A stretch of 64,000 bases of DNA from Escherichia coli (GTDB lineage: Bacteria; Pseudomonadota; Gammaproteobacteria; Enterobacterales; Enterobacteriaceae). Positions 1,524 to 60,173 of this stretch are shown piece after piece. A program made the translations under genes and the position numbers. Position 1 is the first letter of the stretch, and every line of letters starts with the position of its first letter. The stretch lies in NCBI RefSeq assembly GCF_013315695.1, contig NZ_CP054356.1. One strand, 5' to 3'. Under the pieces are notes generated by a model that ran no database searches, was not told the DNA's origin, and saw nothing but the letters and a program-made list of their open reading frames with translations.

Positions 1524-2255
1524 TCAGTCTCCTGTTCCCATAACTTCTTTAATAAATGCCTTTTCTGGAGTTGTTTCATTATTGGATTGAATAAAATCAC
1601 TCATATCAGAATAACGATTTATACTATTTTTTGAAAGCATATAGAAGGGGATTTTATCTCTTGTTAATTCATCAAAAATATGAGTTGAGAAAAATACCGT
1701 TTTCCCGTCAGCGGTGATCTTATTTATCAGTTCCCATAACATCATTCTGTACTGAATATCAATGCCTACAGTTGGTTCATCCAGTAAAAATAAACGGGCA
1801 TTTTTGCAAAGCGTTAGCATCAAAGATATGATAAGCCAACGCTTCTCTCCATAACTTACCGTGTAAGTCCTTTTACGTCTTATTTTATCATAGCGAATGA
1901 AAAAATTATCATTCCATTTATGATTAAGCTCTGTCCATGCCTGTTTTTTAGTTAACTTATTGAAGCAGCAAATCAAATCAAGAACCTCCTCATTCCTTAG
2001 TGTACCTGAAAGATTTATGACTTGAGGTAGACTTACTAATTCTCCACCAGAGAAATTTCGCTTGAGGGTCCCTTCATAATTACTGACTCCGCCCCTGATA
2101 AGGTTAAAAAGAGTGGTCTTCCCGGCTCCATTTTCTCCAAGCAGACCTATCAACTCTCCCTGCTCAATCTTAAGCGACAGATTATTGAAAACAGGGGGTA
2201 AATTTACTTTATATGAAAAGCTCAGAGAGTTGATTTCTAAAAGAGGTATGGTCAT
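1524..2255 (-). CDS. mcbF: Microcin B17 export/immunity ABC transporter ATP-binding protein McbF
   Basis: Walker A GENGAGKTT, ABC signature-like SGGE, Walker B LFLLDEP; position in operon. Confidence 0.9.
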   Translation of the reverse strand: MTIPLLEINSLSFSYKVNLPPVFNNLSLKIEQGELIGLLGENGAGKTTLFNLIRGGVSNYEGTLKRNFSGGELVSLPQVINLSGTLRNEEVLDLICCFNKLTKKQAWTELNHKWNDNFFIRYDKIRRKRTYTVSYGEKRWLIISLMLTLCKNARLFLLDEPTVGIDIQYRMMLWELINKITADGKTVFFSTHIFDELTRDKIPFYMLSKNSINRYSDMSDFIQSNNETTPEKAFIKEVMGTGD

Positions 2256-2977
2256 TGAGAACTCCAGACTGGCTCAGTTTTGAAGGTTAGTGCTGAAATA
2301 ATACTTATGATTAACATTATACTATAGAAAAATATCGTCATCAGAGACAACTCCTGGTCTGACTGGAGTATTGTAGAATAGATGGCGATAGGATTAACCT
2401 GATTTATCCAGTAAACGATCCCCTCATTATATTTTAATGATACAATTCCTGATACCATACAGACAGTTATTAATACAGAATAGATAGTGCTGGCTGTTTG
2501 GAATGTGACTCTGAACGATGCCATGAAAGTGAGTGAAACCATCATAAATGCATTTATGTATATCGATTTTAAAATAATCATTACTATTTGATAATCTGGA
2601 CTTGCCTGGAATCCTGTTAGTACGACTAAAATGAAAAAAAACACATACAAAATAGACATGATAAGTGAGGCTATTAATTGAGAACGAATAAATAATAGTC
2701 GACCATCCATATTATGCACGAAGGTAGCAATAAAACCACTTTCTCTTCTTCCGACCAGATACAGACAGTAATTAAACAGAACAACAGAAAAAGAAATGTA
2801 GCCTACAAACCATGATATTTGTTTTCCGAGCCATGCTGTATCACCATAATGAAGTTCAATTTCATTGAAATGAAGGAAAAAGAACAACACTGTAGGTGAC
2901 ATAATTGTCCATATTAAGCTGAAAGGGGTTCTGATTTGTTCCATCAGAAAAATTATCGCCATTTTTAATGTAACCAT
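2252..2977 (-). CDS. mcbE: Microcin B17 export/immunity ABC transporter permease McbE
   Basis: 241 aa highly hydrophobic multi-TM protein, translationally coupled to mcbF. Confidence 0.85.
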   Translation of the reverse strand: MVTLKMAIIFLMEQIRTPFSLIWTIMSPTVLFFFLHFNEIELHYGDTAWLGKQISWFVGYISFSVVLFNYCLYLVGRRESGFIATFVHNMDGRLLFIRSQLIASLIMSILYVFFFILVVLTGFQASPDYQIVMIILKSIYINAFMMVSLTFMASFRVTFQTASTIYSVLITVCMVSGIVSLKYNEGIVYWINQVNPIAIYSTILQSDQELSLMTIFFYSIMLIISIISALTFKTEPVWSSQ

Positions 2978-2986
2978 TTGTTATCC

Positions 2987-4177
2987 TTATGGGAATGGTA
3001 CCATCTTTGATTCTCTGACTTTAATACCGTCCCCGGTATGGTAAATTTTATTATTAATGTTTATTGCACCTGAGTTATTCATATGAAGGAAAAAATCAGG
3101 GCTTACTATTTTTGTGTACCAGACAAGGCTGTTACTTACTCTTTCCCTGGCATAGTAAACAAAAATATTATCAGAAATTTGTTGAAGATAGTTTAATAAA
3201 TTTGTGTCTGACGTAATATTTTCCTCAAGCGTTAACTTGACATCATCAGACAGTAGTACCGTATTTTCACACAAATCCGTAAACGACTCGTACTTGTTGC
3301 ATGACATAAAGTGACGCTGGTAACTATCAATAATGTCATCATCAGTATAACCGCCAATAAGAAAGTTGTGCAGGCATATATACGATTGCCACAATTCCAC
3401 TACGGATTTACAAAGTGCTTTTTTCAGACTATTAGCATAGGATAATCCGGTACTGTATTTTATTCGACTGATTTTGTTTTTTGTGCCATACAGGGTTAGT
3501 ACTGCGTGTCCAGGAGCTCCGGGCAGGGTGATATCGAAAATCCTGATATCTCCTTCTGACCTGAGAGCCAGTAAAATCTCATCTATATGATTTATGCCTG
3601 TTACTATTTCACTGGATATTTCAGTATTGGCTTTTCCCTGTAACCAGTAAAGAAGGAGGGACTGTCTCTCCATAAATTCACACAAGGAACCTTCTATGGC
3701 ATCGTTCAAACTACCATGAAAGCTACATCCGCATGTATCTCTGTCAGGATAAAATTTCAGATCATCTGCAGCGGTTATATTGTCGAGTGCAATTATGACT
3801 GCAGGTATTTCTTGTTGTTCAAGGCTAAACAGATTAAAGGCTCTGACCGTTTTAAATTTATGGGTTATGATTTCATCGCGGGTCAGTGATGAGATCTGAA
3901 AAAATGCTTCGGTAAAAGCCTTTGCAGCAGATGGAGGCATCATCTCATATAATGTTTTCTGACCACCGGTGACTATCTCATTAAAAAAATGACGGCGTTC
4001 AAAATATTCACCTATTGCCCCCTGAATTGACTTCAGAGTTTCACCGGCCGCGCTGGCTGGTGTAATACGCTCATAGTCCCATATCTGAGAAAACGTTGGC
4101 ATATTTCTGTTCAGTTTTGGACTCATGGCCATTGTGGCCGGCCATGCGGACATAAGGTTACTGTAGACATTTATCAT
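2987..4177 (-). CDS. mcbD: Microcin B17 synthetase subunit McbD (YcaO-type cyclodehydratase)
   Basis: 396 aa, operon position between mcbC and mcbE; size matches McbD. Confidence 0.85.
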   Translation of the reverse strand: MINVYSNLMSAWPATMAMSPKLNRNMPTFSQIWDYERITPASAAGETLKSIQGAIGEYFERRHFFNEIVTGGQKTLYEMMPPSAAKAFTEAFFQISSLTRDEIITHKFKTVRAFNLFSLEQQEIPAVIIALDNITAADDLKFYPDRDTCGCSFHGSLNDAIEGSLCEFMERQSLLLYWLQGKANTEISSEIVTGINHIDEILLALRSEGDIRIFDITLPGAPGHAVLTLYGTKNKISRIKYSTGLSYANSLKKALCKSVVELWQSYICLHNFLIGGYTDDDIIDSYQRHFMSCNKYESFTDLCENTVLLSDDVKLTLEENITSDTNLLNYLQQISDNIFVYYARERVSNSLVWYTKIVSPDFFLHMNNSGAININNKIYHTGDGIKVRESKMVPFP

Positions 4178-4976
4178 CGTTTACATCTCCAAAAAACTGA
4201 ACGATCAGTGGCGCTACAGTCCTCTGATCCAGATTCATTGTTTTTGCTACGTATGAATCGGTATATCCCGCCCATACCCGGTTTTTCAGTCCTATTTGAT
4301 CTGCAACCAATACTGCGTTCTGATACATCGAACCTGTTTCCATTAAGGCCATCCGGTATCCTCTGTAGCGATATTTGAACAAAGCTTTTTCAAAAATAAT
4401 GCAATAGACGAGAGCAAAATGGGGTTTACCAAGACGTTCCGAATCCCCACCGGACAGGCTTCGGTAGAGTGACTGAGTATTACATGTAGCAACAGGTTCC
4501 AGTGCCTGACTTAGCGGCAGGTAGTGATAAACATTAGTTCCTGCCTGCCAGTTTTCTGTATTTTCAGATAATCTGCATAAAAAAACTTCAATCGGGTACA
4601 ATGCCCCCCCAGAAGGATAAGGTCTTCTTACAGAGCCAGGATCAGGTGAGCTGAATGCATTGACTAATAACTTTTCAATAGTACGAATGGAAAGTTTATT
4701 TTTGTCGCAAAAGTTTATTCCTGATGGGAGCCTTTCACGACTAAAATTATGTGATGAGGATATGTTTATTACGGAGCTGAAACCTGGCCTGAAGAGAACT
4801 TCTTTATTTTCAAATTTCTCCAGATGGGCAAGAGGTACCGCGGACACGAAAGTTCGTTCAGCAAATTCGGGGAGGGAAGCAAAGTTACCTCTGACATGAA
4901 AATCTTTAACAATGGCCAGAACTTCAGGATCTGTGTAATGCGTTACTTCCACTAAAGAGAGTTCGTGTTTTGACAT
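4158..4976 (-). CDS. mcbC: Microcin B17 synthetase subunit McbC (FMN-dependent dehydrogenase)
   Basis: 272 aa, operon position; size matches McbC. Confidence 0.85.
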   Translation of the reverse strand: MSKHELSLVEVTHYTDPEVLAIVKDFHVRGNFASLPEFAERTFVSAVPLAHLEKFENKEVLFRPGFSSVINISSSHNFSRERLPSGINFCDKNKLSIRTIEKLLVNAFSSPDPGSVRRPYPSGGALYPIEVFLCRLSENTENWQAGTNVYHYLPLSQALEPVATCNTQSLYRSLSGGDSERLGKPHFALVYCIIFEKALFKYRYRGYRMALMETGSMYQNAVLVADQIGLKNRVWAGYTDSYVAKTMNLDQRTVAPLIVQFFGDVNDDKCLQ

Positions 4977-4977
4977 G

Positions 4978-5865
4978 TTATCTCTCCAGACAGCTGCAAG
5001 CCTGCCAGTGAATTACCGGCTCTTTACATAAAATACAGGTGATTAAATCAGCGCTAACAGATGACATAAAGTTATCGACATGACTTTTAACCAGTGAAGT
5101 ACCTGTCAACTCCTGAAGTCGCCGTTTTATTAAATGATAGCTGAATCCTCTTTCTGATTCGCCTAAAGCCAATGCTGGTAGTGTCATTTGGTATTTTTTC
5201 AGTAACTGAAGTAAGTTTGCCCAGGACATTTCGTTACGTCTGAAGCTTTTTTCTTCCCTGCTCAGCCATCTCTCTATATGACAAAAATGGCAGGGAGTAC
5301 CAAGATCAGGTGAATATACTCCATCTATCCTGAATGACTCCTTTAGGTAGTAGCTTTGGATGAAGGCAACACCAGGGTTACTTTCAAATTTTGAATAGAT
5401 TCTTTTTACAATGTCTGAATGATAGTTTTCGAGATGTAACCAGATTAGTGTTGAATCGCTCACATTAATATTATTATCTTTTATATCAATGATATGAGAA
5501 ACAAAAACACCATCAGATTTCCATTGTTCCCGGGCATTACTGAAAAGATGTGGAACATCGCTTATTATGACTGAGTTTACCCAGAGAGGTGATGTTTTCG
5601 TTTTATTTATCACGCCTGTGGTAATAAGAAACTCTTTGCCCTTGTCTTTATCAATAAGCGATTCGTCCAGTAGTTTATCAAGGAGGTATTCAGAAATAAT
5701 ACCCTGTTTGGATCGTAGGCTTTCGAGTACTTTTTTCATTCCCTCATGTGTAATGTCTACTGAAGAAATGTAGGTAATAAGCAGGGTCTTTGTATTTCTG
5801 GAAATTATCTCAAACGGCAGAATATTGATCATATCTTTTCCTTTTTTAATATCAGGGAGCACCAT
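4978..5865 (-). CDS. mcbB: Microcin B17 synthetase subunit McbB (zinc-binding scaffold)
   Basis: 295 aa, Cys-rich C-terminus (CHFCH..CILC..C.C), directly downstream of mcbA. Confidence 0.85.
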   Translation of the reverse strand: MVLPDIKKGKDMINILPFEIISRNTKTLLITYISSVDITHEGMKKVLESLRSKQGIISEYLLDKLLDESLIDKDKGKEFLITTGVINKTKTSPLWVNSVIISDVPHLFSNAREQWKSDGVFVSHIIDIKDNNINVSDSTLIWLHLENYHSDIVKRIYSKFESNPGVAFIQSYYLKESFRIDGVYSPDLGTPCHFCHIERWLSREEKSFRRNEMSWANLLQLLKKYQMTLPALALGESERGFSYHLIKRRLQELTGTSLVKSHVDNFMSSVSADLITCILCKEPVIHWQACSCLER

Positions 5866-5891
5866 GCTCCCTGAACGGTTAATTCAACGTA

Positions 5892-6101
5892 TCAGATATG
5901 TGAACCACTTCCGCCGCTGCCACCGTTTCCACCACTACAACCGTTGCTGCAACCACCACAACCGCCACCTTGACCACCGCAGCTACCGCCGCCGCCGCCG
6001 CCGCCACCACCACCAATGCCAACACCTAATGGAGACTGGCGTGATAATTTAAGAGCATCAACGGACAAAACTACACCAAATTCACTCGCTTTTAATTCCA
6101 T
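5892..6101 (-). CDS. mcbA: Microcin B17 precursor peptide McbA
   Basis: 69 aa MELKASEFGVVLSVDALKLSRQSPLGVGIGGGGGGGGGGSCGGQGGGCGGCSNGCSGGNGGSGGSGSHI; matches recalled McbA with leader plus Gly/Ser/Cys core. Confidence 0.97.
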   Translation of the reverse strand: MELKASEFGVVLSVDALKLSRQSPLGVGIGGGGGGGGGGSCGGQGGGCGGCSNGCSGGNGGSGGSGSHI

Positions 6102-17687: not shown

Positions 17688-17722
17688 TCCTGCTACTGCT
17701 ACTGCTACTGCTACTGCTACTG
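17688..17722. repeat. Tandem hexanucleotide repeat (TGCTAC)n, about 5 units
   Basis: CTGCTACTGCTACTGCTACTGCTACTGCTACTG in pyrimidine-rich tract preceding family B copy 2. Confidence 0.8.
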
Positions 17723-22872: not shown

Positions 22873-23190
22873 CAGGGCTGATGCTGGTCTGACTGCACTG
22901 AAGCGCCTTTATAAAGGGGCTGCTGGTTCGCCGGTGGCCCCTTTCTCCTTGCTGGCATTGTACGGGCATGAACAACCAGACTGCCAGGAAGGCCGTTTCC
23001 CTCCGGGAACGGGGATGAACGTGCGCCTGCGGCGCCCGTTCTTTTCCCCCGCCTTCTCTGTTTATGACTTACCAGAAATCACATCACCTTCCCTTTGATT
23101 ATTCTCTTTTTCCTCCTGCTCTGACTCTGATTACTGCTCTGACTCTGATTACTGCTGCCCTGATTATTGTCTGTTTTGTTGTTCTCCTGC

Positions 23191-49574: not shown

Positions 49575-50309
49575 TTGATGAAAATGAAAAAATTGATGAT
49601 GGTTGCACTGGTCAGTTCCACTCTGGCCCTTTCAGGGTGTGGTGCGATGAGCACAGCAATCAAGAAGCGTAACCTTGAGGTGAAGACTCAGATGAGTGAG
49701 ACCATCTGGCTTGAACCCGCCAGCGAACGCACGGTATTTCTGCAGATCAAAAACACGTCTGATAAAGACATGAGTGGGCTGCAGGGCAAAATTGCTGATG
49801 CTGTGAAAGCAAAAGGATATCAGGTGGTGACTTCTCCGGATAAAGCCTACTACTGGATTCAGGCGAATGTGCTGAAGGCTGATAAGATGGATCTGCGGGA
49901 GTCTCAGGGATGGCTGAACCGTGGTTATGAAGGCGCAGCTGTTGGTGCAGCGTTAGGTGCCGGTATTACCGGCTATAACTCAAATTCTGCCGGTGCCACA
50001 CTCGGTGTAGGCCTTGCTGCTGGTCTGGTGGGTATGGCTGCAGATGCGATGGTGGAAGATGTGAACTATACCATGATCACGGATGTACAGATTGCAGAGC
50101 GTACTAAGGCAACGGTGACAACGGATAATGTTGCCGCCCTGCGTCAGGGCACATCAGGTGCGAAAATTCAGACCAGTACTGAAACAGGTAACCAGCATAA
50201 ATACCAGACCCGTGTGGTTTCAAATGCGAACAAGGTTAACCTGAAATTTGAAGAGGCGAAGCCTGTTCTCGAAGACCAACTGGCCAAATCAATCGCAAAT
50301 ATTCTCTGA
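49575..50309 (+). CDS. traT: Surface exclusion / serum-resistance lipoprotein TraT
   Basis: [21 protein letters not shown] lipobox; matches TraT. Confidence 0.95.
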
Positions 50310-51299: not shown

Positions 51300-53525
51300 A
51301 TGAGTTTTAACGCAAAGGATATGACCCAGGGCGGTCAGATTGCGTCCATGCGTATCCGCATGTTCAGCCAGATCGCCAATATCATGCTTTACTGCCTGTT
51401 TATTTTTTTCTGGATACTCGTTGGTCTGATTTTATGGGTAAAAATAAGCTGGCAGACGTTTGTGAACGGCTGTATTTACTGGTGGTGTACCACGCTGGAA
51501 GGCATGCGGGATTTAATCAAGTCCCAGCCAGTATATGAGATCCAGTATTACGGCAAAACCTTCCGGATGAACGCTGCCCAGGTACTGCATGATAAATATA
51601 TGATCTGGTGCGGAGAGCAGCTATGGTCCGCATTCGTTCTGGCCACAGTTGTGGCACTGGTTATTTGCCTGATCACCTTCTTTGTTGTCTCCTGGATTCT
51701 GGGGCGTCAGGGTAAACAACAGAGCGAAAATGAAGTCACAGGTGGTCGTCAGCTGACAGACAATCCGAAAGACGTTGCCCGGATGCTGAAAAAAGACGGC
51801 AAGGACTCCGATATCCGGATTGGCGACCTGCCGATTATCCGGGATTCCGAAATCCAGAACTTCTGTCTGCACGGCACGGTCGGGGCCGGTAAGTCGGAGG
51901 TTATCCGTCGTCTGGCCAACTATGCCCGTCAGCGCGGTGATATGGTGGTGATTTATGACCGTTCAGGGGAATTTGTTAAAAGTTACTATGATCCCTCCAT
52001 CGATAAAATCCTGAATCCGCTGGATGCCCGCTGTGCCGCATGGGATTTGTGGAAGGAGTGCCTGACACAGCCGGATTTTGATAATACCGCAAATACTCTG
52101 ATCCCTATGGGTACAAAAGAGGACCCGTTCTGGCAGGGTTCAGGACGTACCATTTTTGCGGAAGCGGCGTACCTGATGCGTAATGACCCCAACCGCAGCT
52201 ACAGCAAACTGGTGGACACACTGCTTTCCATCAAAATTGAAAAACTGCGTACCTTCCTGCGTAATTCACCGGCAGCCAACCTGGTGGAAGAGAAAATTGA
52301 GAAAACGGCGATTTCCATCCGTGCTGTGCTGACCAACTACGTGAAAGCCATCCGTTACCTGCAGGGGATTGAGCATAACGGTGATCCCTTCACCATCCGT
52401 GACTGGATGCGTGGTGTCCGGGAAGATCAGAAAAACGGCTGGCTGTTTATTTCGTCGAACGCCGACACCCATGCCTCCCTGAAGCCTGTGATCTCCATGT
52501 GGCTGTCCATTGCCATTCGTGGTCTGCTGGCAATGGGAGAAAACCGTAACCGTCGTGTGTGGTTTTTCTGTGATGAGTTACCCACGTTACACAAACTGCC
52601 GGATCTGGTGGAGATCCTGCCGGAAGCCCGTAAGTTCGGTGGCTGTTATGTGTTTGGTATCCAGTCCTATGCCCAGCTGGAAGATATCTACGGTGAGAAA
52701 GCGGCGGCCACGCTGTTTGACGTCATGAACACCCGTGCTTTTTTCCGTTCCCCGAGCCATAAGATTGCAGAGTTCGCTGCCGGTGAGATTGGTGAGAAAG
52801 AGCACCTGAAAGCCAGCGAGCAGTATTCCTACGGTGCTGACCCGGTACGTGACGGGGTATCGACCGGTAAGGATATGGAGCGTCAGACGCTGGTCAGTTA
52901 TTCCGACATTCAGTCTCTGCCGGATCTGACCTGCTATGTCACTCTGCCCGGACCGTATCCGGCAGTCAAACTCTCTCTGAAATATCAGGCACGACCGAAG
53001 GTCGCTCCGGAGTTTATTCCGCGTGACATCAACCCGGAAATGGAGAACCGTCTGAGTGCCGTACTTGCCGCAAGGGAAGCAGAAGGTCGTCAGATGGCCA
53101 GCCTCTTTGAACCGGAGGTTGCCTCCGGAGAAGATGTGACTCAGGCTGAACAGCCACAACAGCCACAACAGCCACAACAGCCACAACAGCCACAACAGCC
53201 ACAACAGCCACAACAGCCACAACAGCCACAACAGCCACAACAGCCAGTGTCTTCTGTCATCAATGATAAGAAGTCAGATGCAGGTGTGAGTGTTCCGGCA
53301 GGGGGGATCGAGCAGGAGCTGAAAATGAAACCGGAAGAAGAGATGGAACAGCAACTGCCACCCGGGATCAGTGAATCCGGTGAAGTGGTGGATATGGCCG
53401 CTTATGAGGCATGGCAACAGGAAAATCATCCGGACATCCAGCAGCATATGCAGCGTCGTGAAGAGGTGAACATTAATGTGCACCGGGAGCGCGGGGAGGA
53501 TGTTGAGCCGGGAGATGATTTCTGA
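51300..53525 (+). CDS. traD: Type IV coupling protein TraD
   Basis: 741 aa; Walker A GTVGAGKS; C-terminal QPQ repeats. Confidence 0.95.
53151..53246 (+). repeat. Tandem 9-bp repeat (CAGCCACAA)x10 encoding (QPQ)n in TraD C-terminal tail
   Basis: Ten perfect tandem units visible at 53151-53240. Confidence 0.9.
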
Positions 53526-56500
53526 TGTTGAGTTTCAGCGTTGTTAAATCGGCAGGCAGTGCCGGAAACTATTACACCGACAAGGATAATTACTATGTGC
53601 TGGGCAGCATGGGAGAACGCTGGGCTGGTCAGGGGGCTGAACAGCTTGGGCTGCAGGGCAGCGTCGATAAGGATGTTTTTACCCGTCTTCTGGAGGGCAG
53701 GCTGCCGGACGGGGCGGATTTAAGCCGCATGCAGGATGGCAGTAATAAGCATCGTCCCGGCTACGACCTGACCTTCTCCGCCCCCAAAAGTGTCTCCATG
53801 ATGGCCATGCTCGGGGGGGATAAACGTCTTATTGATGCACATAACCAGGCCGTGGATTTTGCTGTCCGTCAGGTGGAGGCGCTGGCTTCCACACGGGTGA
53901 TGACGGACGGACAGTCAGAAACGGTGCTGACCGGTAATCTGGTGATGGCACTGTTTAACCATGACACCAGTCGCGATCAGGACCCACAGTTACACACGCA
54001 TGTAGTGGTGGCTAATGTCACGCAGCATAACGGCGAGTGGAAGACACTGAGCAGTGACAAAGTGGGGAAAACCGGATTTTCCGAGAACGTGCTAGCGAAC
54101 CGGATTGCGTTCGGGAAAATATATCAGAGTGAGTTACGTCAGCGCGTTGAGGCGCTGGGTTATGAAACCGAAGTGGTCGGTAAGCACGGTATGTGGGAGA
54201 TGCCGGGCGTACCGGTGGAGGCCTTTTCCAGTCGTTCACAGGCTATCAGGGAGGCCGTCGGTGAAGACGCCTCGCTGAAATCCCGGGATGTGGCGGCACT
54301 GGATACGCGAAAATCCAAACAGCACGTCGATCCGGAAATCAGAATGGCTGAATGGATGCAGACGCTGAAGGAAACCGGGTTCGACATCCGGGCATATCGT
54401 GACGCGGCGGATCAGCGTGCGGAGATCCGCACGCAGGCGCCCGGGCCTGCTTCACAGGACGGGCCGGATGTGCAGCAGGCGGTGACACAGGCGATTGCCG
54501 GATTAAGTGAACGAAAAGTGCAGTTCACGTATACGGACGTGCTGGCCAGGACGGTCGGCATACTGCCGCCGGAAAATGGTGTGATTGAACGGGCACGCGC
54601 CGGTATCGATGAGGCCATCAGCCGTGAGCAGCTTATCCCCCTCGACCGTGAGAAGGGGCTGTTCACATCAGGAATTCATGTGCTCGATGAGCTGTCCGTC
54701 CGGGCACTCAGTCGTGACATCATGAAACAGAACCGGGTGACCGTACATCCGGAGAAAAGTGTCCCCCGGACGGCTGGTTACAGCGATGCGGTCAGTGTTC
54801 TGGCACAGGACCGTCCGTCGCTGGCCATTGTGTCCGGGCAGGGCGGTGCAGCCGGGCAGCGTGAGCGGGTGGCTGAACTGGTCATGATGGCCCGGGAGCA
54901 GGGGCGGGAGGTGCAGATTATCGCTGCTGACCGTCGCTCGCAGATGAACCTGAAGCAGGATGAACGGCTGTCCGGTGAGCTGATAACCGGACGTCGTCAG
55001 CTGCAGGAGGGCATGGTCTTCACGCCGGGCAGTACTGTTATCGTCGACCAGGGCGAAAAACTCTCCCTGAAAGAGACGTTAACCCTGCTGGACGGTGCCG
55101 CACGTCATAACGTACAGGTCCTGATAACCGACAGCGGGCAGCGAACCGGTACAGGCAGTGCGCTGATGGCCATGAAGGATACCGGGGTGAACACGTATCG
55201 CTGGCAGGGCGGAGAACAGCGACCGGCAACCATCATCAGTGAACCGGACCGGAATGTCCGCTATGACCGGCTGGCCGGAGATTTTGCGGCCAGCGTGAAA
55301 GCCGGAGAAGAGAGCGTGGCACAGGTCAGCGGGGTACGGGAACAGGCCATACTGACACAGGCCATTCGCAGTGAGCTGAAAACACAGGGCGTGCTCGGAC
55401 ACCCGGAGGTGACCATGACCGCCCTGTCACCGGTCTGGCTGGACAGCCGGAGCCGTTATCTGCGGGATATGTACCGACCGGGGATGGTGATGGAGCAGTG
55501 GAACCCGGAGACACGCAGTCATGACCGCTATGTTATCGACCGGGTGACGGCGCAGAGTCACAGCCTGACCCTGCGGGATGCGCAGGGCGAAACGCAGGTG
55601 GTGCGTATTTCCTCCCTGGACAGCAGCTGGTCGCTGTTCCGGCCGGAAAAAATGCCGGTGGCAGACGGCGAGCGACTGAGGGTGACAGGGAAAATTCCCG
55701 GACTCCGCGTCTCCGGCGGTGACCGCCTGCAGGTGGCATCCGTCAGTGAAGATGCGATGACGGTTGTTGTGCCGGGGCGGGCTGAACCGGCCACCCTGCC
55801 TGTGGCTGATTCACCGTTCACGGCACTGAAGCTGGAGAACGGCTGGGTGGAAACGCCCGGGCATTCCGTCAGTGACAGTGCGACGGTGTTTGCCTCCGTC
55901 ACACAGATGGCAATGGACAACGCCACCCTGAACGGTCTGGCCCGCAGCGGTCGTGATGTCCGGCTGTATTCCTCACTGGATGAAACCCGTACTGCGGAAA
56001 AACTTGCCCGCCATCCCTCCTTTACGGTGGTTTCTGAGCAGATAAAGGCGCGGGCCGGTGAGACATCGCTGGAAACCGCTATCAGTCTGCAGAAAACCGG
56101 GCTGCACACGCCGGCACAGCAGGCCATTCATCTGGCCCTTCCTGTGCTGGAAAGTAAAAACCTGGCCTTCAGCATGGTGGACCTGCTGACAGAGGCGAAG
56201 TCGTTTGCTGCAGAAGGAACCGGTTTTACTGAACTGGGAGGGGAAATCAATGCGCAGATAAAACGCGGTGACTTACTGTATGTGGATGTGGCAAAAGGCT
56301 ATGGCACAGGCCTGCTGGTTTCCCGTGCGTCGTATGAGGCAGAAAAAAGTATTCTTCGCCATATTCTCGAAGGTAAGGAGGCGGTCACGCCGCTGATGGA
56401 GAGAGTACCCGGCGAACTCATGGAGACGTTAACGTCGGGACAGCGTGCCGCCACCCGTATGATACTGGAAACGTCCGACCGTTTCACGGTGGTACAGGGT

Positions 56501-58814: not shown

Positions 58815-59561
58815 ATGACAACGGATAACACGAACACGACACGTAACGATTCACTGGCTGCACGGACCGATACCTGGTTGCAGTCGTTTCTGGTCTGGTC
58901 ACCCGGACAGCGGGATATCATCAAAACGGTGGCGCTGGTGCTGATGGTACTGGACCACATCAATCTGATATTCCAGCTGAAGCAGGAATGGATGTTTCTG
59001 GCCGGGCGAGGAGCCTTTCCGCTGTTTGCCCTGGTGTGGGGGCTGAATCTGTCCCGTCATGCGCATATCCGGCAACCGGCCATTAACCGGCTGTGGGGAT
59101 GGGGAATTATTGCCCAGTTCGCATATTATCTGGCCGGCTTTCCCTGGTATGAGGGGAATATCCTGTTTGCCTTTGCAGTGGCGGCACAGGTGCTGACGTG
59201 GTGTGAAACGCGCAGTGGGTGGCGTACAGCAGCGGCCATTCTTCTGATGGCCCTGTGGGGGCCTTTGTCCGGCACCAGTTACGGCATTGCCGGGCTGCTG
59301 ATGCTGGCGGTCAGTTACCGACTGTACCGGGCGGAAGACAGAGCGGAACGTCTGGCGCTGGTCGCCTGCCTGCTGGCTGTTATTCCGGCGCTTAACCTTG
59401 CCACCAGTGATGCAGCGGCGGTGGCTGGTCTTGTGATGACGGTGCTGACCGTTGGTCTGGTGTCCTGTGCAGGAAAATCATTACCCCGTTTCTGGCCCGG
59501 GGATTTTTTCCCGGTATTCTACGCCTGTCATCTGGCTGTGCTGGGCGTTCTGGCGCTGTGA
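58815..59561 (+). CDS. traX: Pilin N-acetylase TraX
   Basis: ATG 58815 (MTTDNTNTTRNDSL..), multi-TM protein; track ORF begins upstream inside traI. Confidence 0.85.
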   Translation: MTTDNTNTTRNDSLAARTDTWLQSFLVWSPGQRDIIKTVALVLMVLDHINLIFQLKQEWMFLAGRGAFPLFALVWGLNLSRHAHIRQPAINRLWGWGIIAQFAYYLAGFPWYEGNILFAFAVAAQVLTWCETRSGWRTAAAILLMALWGPLSGTSYGIAGLLMLAVSYRLYRAEDRAERLALVACLLAVIPALNLATSDAAAVAGLVMTVLTVGLVSCAGKSLPRFWPGDFFPVFYACHLAVLGVLAL

Positions 59562-59615
59562 CGGGTGTGGTATCTTTGACCGTAACAGGATGATTCGTCA
59601 GAGGCAGAACACAGC

Positions 59616-60173
59616 ATGACAGAGCAGAAGCGACCGGTACTGACACTGAAGCGGAAAACGGAAGGGGAGACGCCTGTCCGCAGGCGGAAAACCATCATCA
59701 ATGTCACCACGCCACCAAAGTGGAAGGTGAAAAAGCAGAAGCTGGCCGAGAAAGCAGCCCGGGAAGCGGAGCTGGCGGCAAAAAAAGCGCAGGCCAGACA
59801 GGCGCTGTCCATTTATCTGACGCTGCCCTCGCTGGATGAGGCGGTGAACACTCTGAAACCCTGGTGGCCGGGATTGTTTGACGGTAACACGCCCAGGCTT
59901 CTTGCCTGTGGTATCCGGGAGGTTTTACTGGATGAGGTGTTTCAGCGGAATATCCCGCTCTCTCATAAAAAACTCAGCCGGGCGCTGAAAGCTATCACCC
60001 GTTCGGAAAGTTATCTGTGTGCAATGAAAGCCGGCGCCTGCCGCTATGATACGGAAGGCTATGTGACAGAACATATCACACAGGAAGAAGAACAGTATGC
60101 GCAGGCGCGCCTGGAAAAGGTGCGCAGACAGAACCGGATCAAGGATGAGCTGCGGGCGATCCTGGCGGAATAA
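59616..60173 (+). CDS. finO: Fertility inhibition RNA chaperone FinO (apparently intact)
   Basis: 185 aa basic protein [59 protein letters not shown].. Confidence 0.92.

Follow-up and report, generated by a model that had tools for sequence, protein, structure and literature searches.

A repeat in the traD gene of F-like plasmids has already been published in three forms (PMC3245843; PMC6459517; PMC6402710). Within the C-terminal extension of F-like TraD proteins, which is described as unstructured, a variable "QQP motif" was reported by Lang et al. (2011, Mol Microbiol; PMC3245843, Discussion and Figure 8), with 5 Q/P residues in F and 23 in R1. In Salmonella Typhimurium, the traD gene of plasmid pSLT contains a 9-bp VNTR (PSLT104) that was sized by PCR at 5 to 19 copies in 220 isolates and serves as a lineage marker (Hiley et al., 2019, PLoS One; PMC6459517). 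Finally, 61 and 11 CAACAGCCA repeats in traD are among the few tra-region differences between the IncFII plasmids pNDM-EC16-50 and pSJ_94, respectively (PMC6402710).

The array considered here lies in traD of a microcin-B17 IncF plasmid of Escherichia coli of about 72 kb, from which the window, i.e., the whole stretch of 64,000 nucleotides that was analysed, is taken, mcb genes included. It resembles the QQP motif in being a Gln/Pro repeat at the same position of the same protein, in an extension described as unstructured that precedes the TraM interaction domain, but it is longer (32 Q/P residues), and the earlier work dealt with a handful of reference plasmids, none of them near-isogenic, and did not discuss a VNTR at the DNA level. 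The pSLT VNTR occupies the homologous position and also encodes QPQ (in LT2 pSLT the array is perfect, with 10.8 copies), whereas its unit is CAGCCGCAA, with the Pro codon CCG, in place of CAGCCACAA, and the two TraD proteins are ~84% identical. The unit of pNDM-EC16-50 and pSJ_94 is identical to that of the window, CAACAGCCA being a rotation of CAGCCACAA, but there it was a single comparison made in passing, and the window holds 10 units. Literature searches with the unit string returned unrelated papers only, those combining TraD with disorder nothing relevant, and those on the QQP motif little of use beyond PMC3245843. What is added here is breadth, together with a clearer view of the speed of change between near-isogenic plasmids, an outcome that is unsurprising for a perfect VNTR.

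By string comparison, ten exact CAGCCACAA units fill positions 53151 to 53240 of the window and are followed by CAGCCA, up to 53246 (Table 1). The earlier note had described a perfect ten-unit repeat at 53151–53246 encoding (QPQ)10 in the C-terminal extension of TraD. The exactness holds, with the precision that the full units stop at 53240 and the rest is a partial unit; the in-frame translation, ...GEDVTQAE(QPQ)10QPVSSV..., gives (QPQ)10 plus QP, and the placement agrees with the TrwB ATPase structures (1e9r and 1gl6), which align to TraD residues 161–573 only. The VNTR/QQP motif is defined by a tandem 9-bp Gln/Pro unit, CAACAGCCA or its CCG variant, between ...TQAE and VS(S/P)..., and the array of the window agrees with this. 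Tandem Repeats Finder delimits the array at 53149–53246 (period 9, 10.9 copies, 100% matches, 0% indels, score 196) and ranks it as the top-scoring tandem repeat of the whole window, and a three-unit probe gives 8 overlapping matches at the array and none in 100 dinucleotide-preserving shuffles. Other tandem repeats in the window are a perfect (CTGCTA)5.5 at 17690–17722, where no ORF is convincing, and, at 23116–23166, 2.3 to 3 copies of an 18-bp unit.

Table 1. Coordinates, in the window, of the traD array, its host gene and the neighbouring and microcin genes.
Feature	Position	Strand	Basis or remark
Microcin B17 operon	1524–6101	–	
McbB	4978–5865	–	TIGR04424, 289 bits
McbA precursor ORF	5892–6101	–	ends ...GIGGGGGGGGGGSCGGQGGGCGGCSNGCSGGNGGSGGSGSHI
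TraT	49575–50309		upstream of traD
traD, F-type type IV coupling protein, 741 aa	51300–53525	+	NF010254, TIGR02759
Folded cytoplasmic ATPase/DNA-binding domain of TraD, residues 172–561	51813–52982	+	Pfam PF10412; repeat outside
Predicted disordered linker of TraD, residues 602–684	53103–53351	+	AlphaFold2 pLDDT; repeat inside
9-bp VNTR, 10 CAGCCACAA + partial eleventh unit CAGCCA	53151–53246	+	TraD residues 618–649
Last 8 residues of TraD, DVEPGDDF	53499–53522	+	counterpart of the TraM-binding tip of F TraD
traI relaxase/helicase, 1756 aa	53525–58795	+	NF010263, 3329 bits; immediately 3' of traD
TraX	58815–59561		downstream of traI
FinO	59616–60173		downstream of traX

The ORF carrying the array scores well above the cut-offs of the traD models of NCBIfam (NF010254, 1676 bits, cut-off 1221; TIGR02759, 836 bits, cut-off 521); its product contains the Pfam domains TraD_N (residues 32–128) and TrwB_AAD_bind (172–561), and the Walker A motif GTVGAGKS, in which G192, G197, K198 and S199 are invariant in 26 homologues. 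The gene order, traT – orf – traD – traI – traX – finO, is that of an F-type tra region. At the traX–finO gap (59562–59615) the window is without the ~1 kb that encodes an alpha/beta hydrolase in R100-like relatives (L001–L007), and its finO region is only ~87% identical to theirs. The mcb operon indicates that the source plasmid is pMccB17-like; the operon also holds genes for a SagB-like dehydrogenase, a YcaO/SagD-like cyclodehydratase and an ABC ATPase, and the Gly10 run of McbA corresponds to a perfect (CCG)6.7 repeat at 5986–6005. Over its first 25 kb the window shares 99.9% identity with NZ_CP095528.1 and siblings (99.7–99.9% across the sibling microcin-B17 plasmids), yet at ~51300–54750 most of these siblings (L008–L018) have other traD/traI alleles than the window: the 1850 nt before the repeat contain 53 mismatches, and the 1500 nt after it 95. 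CP056405.1 alone has the allele of the window (1 mismatch upstream, 0 downstream). The distal part of the tra region is thus a recombinant mosaic. In two sibling microcin-B17 plasmids, NZ_CP145141.1 (L012) and NZ_CP024888.1 (L014), an ISEc23 element (IS66 family) sits at the place of traD and no intact traD is annotated, and they still hold 4 and 17 units, respectively; both plasmids are probably transfer-defective.

A 576-bp query across the array hit 3,976 PLSDB plasmid records and 2,802 of 5,426 complete E. coli genomes, and the span of the traD tail was recorded in two evenly spaced samples, of 56 PLSDB plasmids and 57 complete E. coli genomes (113 records). The difference from the window is a multiple of 9 bp in 56/56 spans of the first sample, which comprises 19 distinct lengths, and in 56/57 spans of the second, which comprises 17; in the two samples pooled, the tail occurs in at least 19 lengths. 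The sole exception, a span of 539 in NZ_CP100504.1 (H147), is due to a frameshift in traD or to an erroneous 1-bp indel, and looks like the latter. The commonest span, 504 bp, was found in 12/56 and 13/57 records, and the one such record that was fetched contains an F-type allele with a single unit. Two cautions apply to counting. A score-ranked BLAST list is biased towards long arrays, since the bit scores of two overlapping pieces are summed, and it therefore served for the maximum and for isogenic pairs only, not for the distribution; moreover, counts based on spans are one unit off for F-type alleles, which have an extra 9-nt "DVP" insertion upstream, so that exact counts were restricted to fetched sequence and to records whose flanks are at least 98% identical.

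Counted directly in public assemblies, in which long arrays may be miscounted, the window-type alleles contain 1, 1, 1, 3, 4, 6, 9, 10, 11, 12, 13, 14, 14, 14, 15, 17, 18, 20, 21, 22, 23, 27 and 30 units, and the F-type alleles 1, 5 and 9. All 26 counted arrays consist of whole 9-bp units between intact conserved flanks, the 8 tails that were translated remain in frame to the same stop, and every array among the 26 fetched stretches is internally pure except one hybrid, described below. Eleven sibling microcin-B17 plasmids display 10 different unit counts. In all three window-type alleles with one unit (L006, L016 and L017) the trailing CAGCCA is replaced by the synonymous CAGCCT, which does not occur in any longer array. 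Among the complete E. coli genomes, 34 of 3,275 traD-tail matches are chromosomal (e.g., at 3.94 Mb in strain Origami2-DE3), and presumably represent integrated F-type elements.

Extensive copy-number polymorphism is found even between near-identical plasmids, in which 0 to 3 mismatches in 16–31 kb of flanking sequence go with a difference of 1 to 19 units. Two plasmids from one pig farm (NZ_CP075482.1 and NZ_CP075466.1), without a mismatch over 30.8 kb, have 14 and 18 units, and their record lengths are exactly 36 bp apart; two from the same hospital series (NZ_CP079124.1 and NZ_CP079135.1), with 2 mismatches over 30.8 kb, have 14 and 15 units and record lengths exactly 9 bp apart. Likewise, L004 and L005 have 13 and 6 units with 1 mismatch over 16.5 kb, and L003 and L006 have 20 and 1 with 3 mismatches over 16.5 kb. 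The array thus changes much faster than point substitutions build up, and the length variability that the earlier note had expected is borne out, the homologous array running from 1 to 30 units instead of being invariant.

As to the place of the array in the protein, the AlphaFold2 model of TraD, which is of moderate quality (mean pLDDT 62, alignment of 26 sequences), shows coil without secondary structure and pLDDT below 50 over residues 602–684, low pLDDT being a mere proxy for disorder; helices are predicted at 699–722, and confidence peaks across 690–710. The array is taken to belong to a low-complexity, probably disordered tether. A PDB sequence search with TraD matched the TrwB ATPase domain only, the TraD tail peptide of the published TraM complex being too short for that library. 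Among 26 TraD proteins (59–98% identity), the linker between the conserved LFEP and GGxEQEL motifs is 31–101 aa long, unconserved and rich in P/A/T/S/Q. QPQ seeds are found in the linkers of the F, pSLT and R100-like branches, as well as in those of two remoter homologues (P0023 and P0025, 77–78% identity in the alignment), and most remaining relatives, Klebsiella-type included, have a P/A/T-rich linker in place of QPQ. Unlike the linker, the ...GDDF tip is conserved across TraD homologues, and the C-terminal sequence does not differ among the compared alleles at any repeat number, F-type alleles included.

Specificity for TraM is set by the last 8 residues of TraD, at the end of a tail that is predicted to be flexible (PMC3159463). 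The array lies outside the ATPase domain and ~85 residues upstream of this tip, and is therefore part of the tether and not of the recognition site. This refines the claim that the tail bears on coupling-protein/relaxosome specificity: the extension is indeed implicated (PMC3245843; PMC3159463), with the nuance that the repeat contributes tether and the terminal residues the determinant. If fully extended in a polyproline-II-like form, at ~0.31 nm per residue, the QPQ tract would measure an estimated ~1.6 nm with 1 unit, 10 nm with 10 and 29 nm with 30. In the proline-rich spacers of envelope-spanning proteins such as TonB, too, a length-tolerant, low-complexity Pro segment is placed between an anchored and a distal interaction domain, although the analogy is one of function only, since protein, compartment and sequence are all different.

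The explanation that best accommodates these observations, and that we hold to be highly probable, is that of an in-frame traD VNTR, prone to slippage, within a flexible tether of loosely constrained length. Identical 9-bp direct repeats are classic substrates of replication slippage. Since the units are identical in DNA, we infer that slippage gains and loses whole units, and recombination inside the array may now and then do likewise; the reading frame would be preserved in every case, and the only thing to change would be the length of the tether, which would link the membrane-anchored hexameric ATPase body to the C-terminal tip, the part that contacts TraM at oriT. The Pro codon goes with the allele of the flanks, being CCA in window-type arrays and CCG throughout the F-type and pSLT arrays, and this allele-specific codon, together with the whole-unit changes and the purity of the arrays, fits repeated gain and loss with homogenisation of each array. 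The one hybrid array (NZ_CP074408.1, L011) consists of a window-type upstream flank, 20 CAGCCACAA units, 2 CAGCCGCAA units, a CAGCCG tail and the F-type downstream flank VSPAINDKKSDSGVN, which points to a crossover inside the repeat and hence to a contribution of recombination as well. The distribution suggests that arrays of many units change faster and that one-unit alleles, such as that of F, are locked; that 504 bp is the commonest span, with a single unit in the record that was fetched, is in keeping with slippage being rare until a threshold of units is reached. Given that many lengths are tolerated, most of the length variation is probably close to neutral. An on/off phase-variable contingency gene was also considered and rejected: the unit lies inside the coding sequence and is a multiple of three, and 112 of the 113 sampled lengths are off by multiples of 9, so that the locus is unable to switch on and off and alters tether length alone.

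A different kind of contingency locus would be one in which a hypermutable tether length tunes TraD, with regard to relaxosome docking, mobilisation of non-cognate plasmids and entry of R17-type RNA phages, and in which fluctuating selection maintains the diversity. Allelic diversity is indeed extreme, even inside one plasmid lineage, and long pure arrays persist, with up to 30 units here and 61 published (PMC6402710); furthermore, Lang et al. noted that F and R1 differ in QQP length as well as in the dependence of R17 infection on the relaxosome, and proposed a phage-driven diversification of F-like coupling proteins (PMC3245843). However, slippage in a tolerant linker accounts for all the observations made here, natural plasmids span 1 to 30 units and more, linker length and sequence are unconserved family-wide, and the literature search turned up no relation between length and phenotype. 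Nor does the preserved frame speak for selection, since any change by whole 9-bp units leaves it intact. We consider such tuning unlikely, while granting it a small share of the probability; if it were true, populations of F-like plasmids would explore trade-offs among docking of their own relaxosome, promiscuous mobilisation and susceptibility to the RNA phages of the F pilus that depend on TraD.

The slippage-prone tether also has to be weighed against the view that the true copy number is fairly constant and that its variation is mostly an artefact of a repeat exceeding short reads, which we regard as very improbable. Short-read assemblies do suffer at this locus: the representative of a protein cluster of "partial" TraD (P0017, 596 aa, 4,849 members) ends in ...GEGVTQA, exactly at the start of the repeat, evidently because short-read contigs break there; arrays of more than ~15 units outrun 150-bp reads, and the sampled span of 539, which is no multiple of 9, suggests a sequence error. 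Nevertheless, the 5 to 19 repeats of pSLT traD were obtained by PCR sizing, independently of any assembly (PMC6459517), the tract lengths of F and R1 differ as well (PMC3245843), the arrays are all clean with their flanks intact, and differences between near-identical backbones extend to arrays of 1–10 units, short enough to be covered by a single read.

That the repeat acts instead as a DNA or RNA element (a protein-binding site or a regulatory structure), or serves the 217-aa minus-strand ORF that crosses it (52587–53240), can practically be dismissed, since the unit has no self-complementarity, the array is mid-way in a long operon and within a strongly supported coding sequence, the QPQ reading is kept across arrays with the differing Pro codons CCA and CCG, which points to conservation at the protein and not at the nucleotide level, and the antisense ORF is treated as spurious: its TTG start lies within the repeat, no Pfam family matches it, and it is open only because the reverse complement TTGTGGCTG is stop-free in every frame.

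The array outpaces everything else on these plasmids in its rate of change, which makes it a sensitive marker for plasmid epidemiology, albeit one prone to homoplasy, and one to be masked when it is judged whether two plasmids are "identical". It breaks short-read assemblies, leaving thousands of "partial" TraD entries and rendering copy numbers from short reads unreliable, and it spreads TraD over many protein accessions distinct in tether length alone. The value of the finding is mainly practical, and for the biology of F-like plasmids the array marks the flexible tether of their coupling protein.
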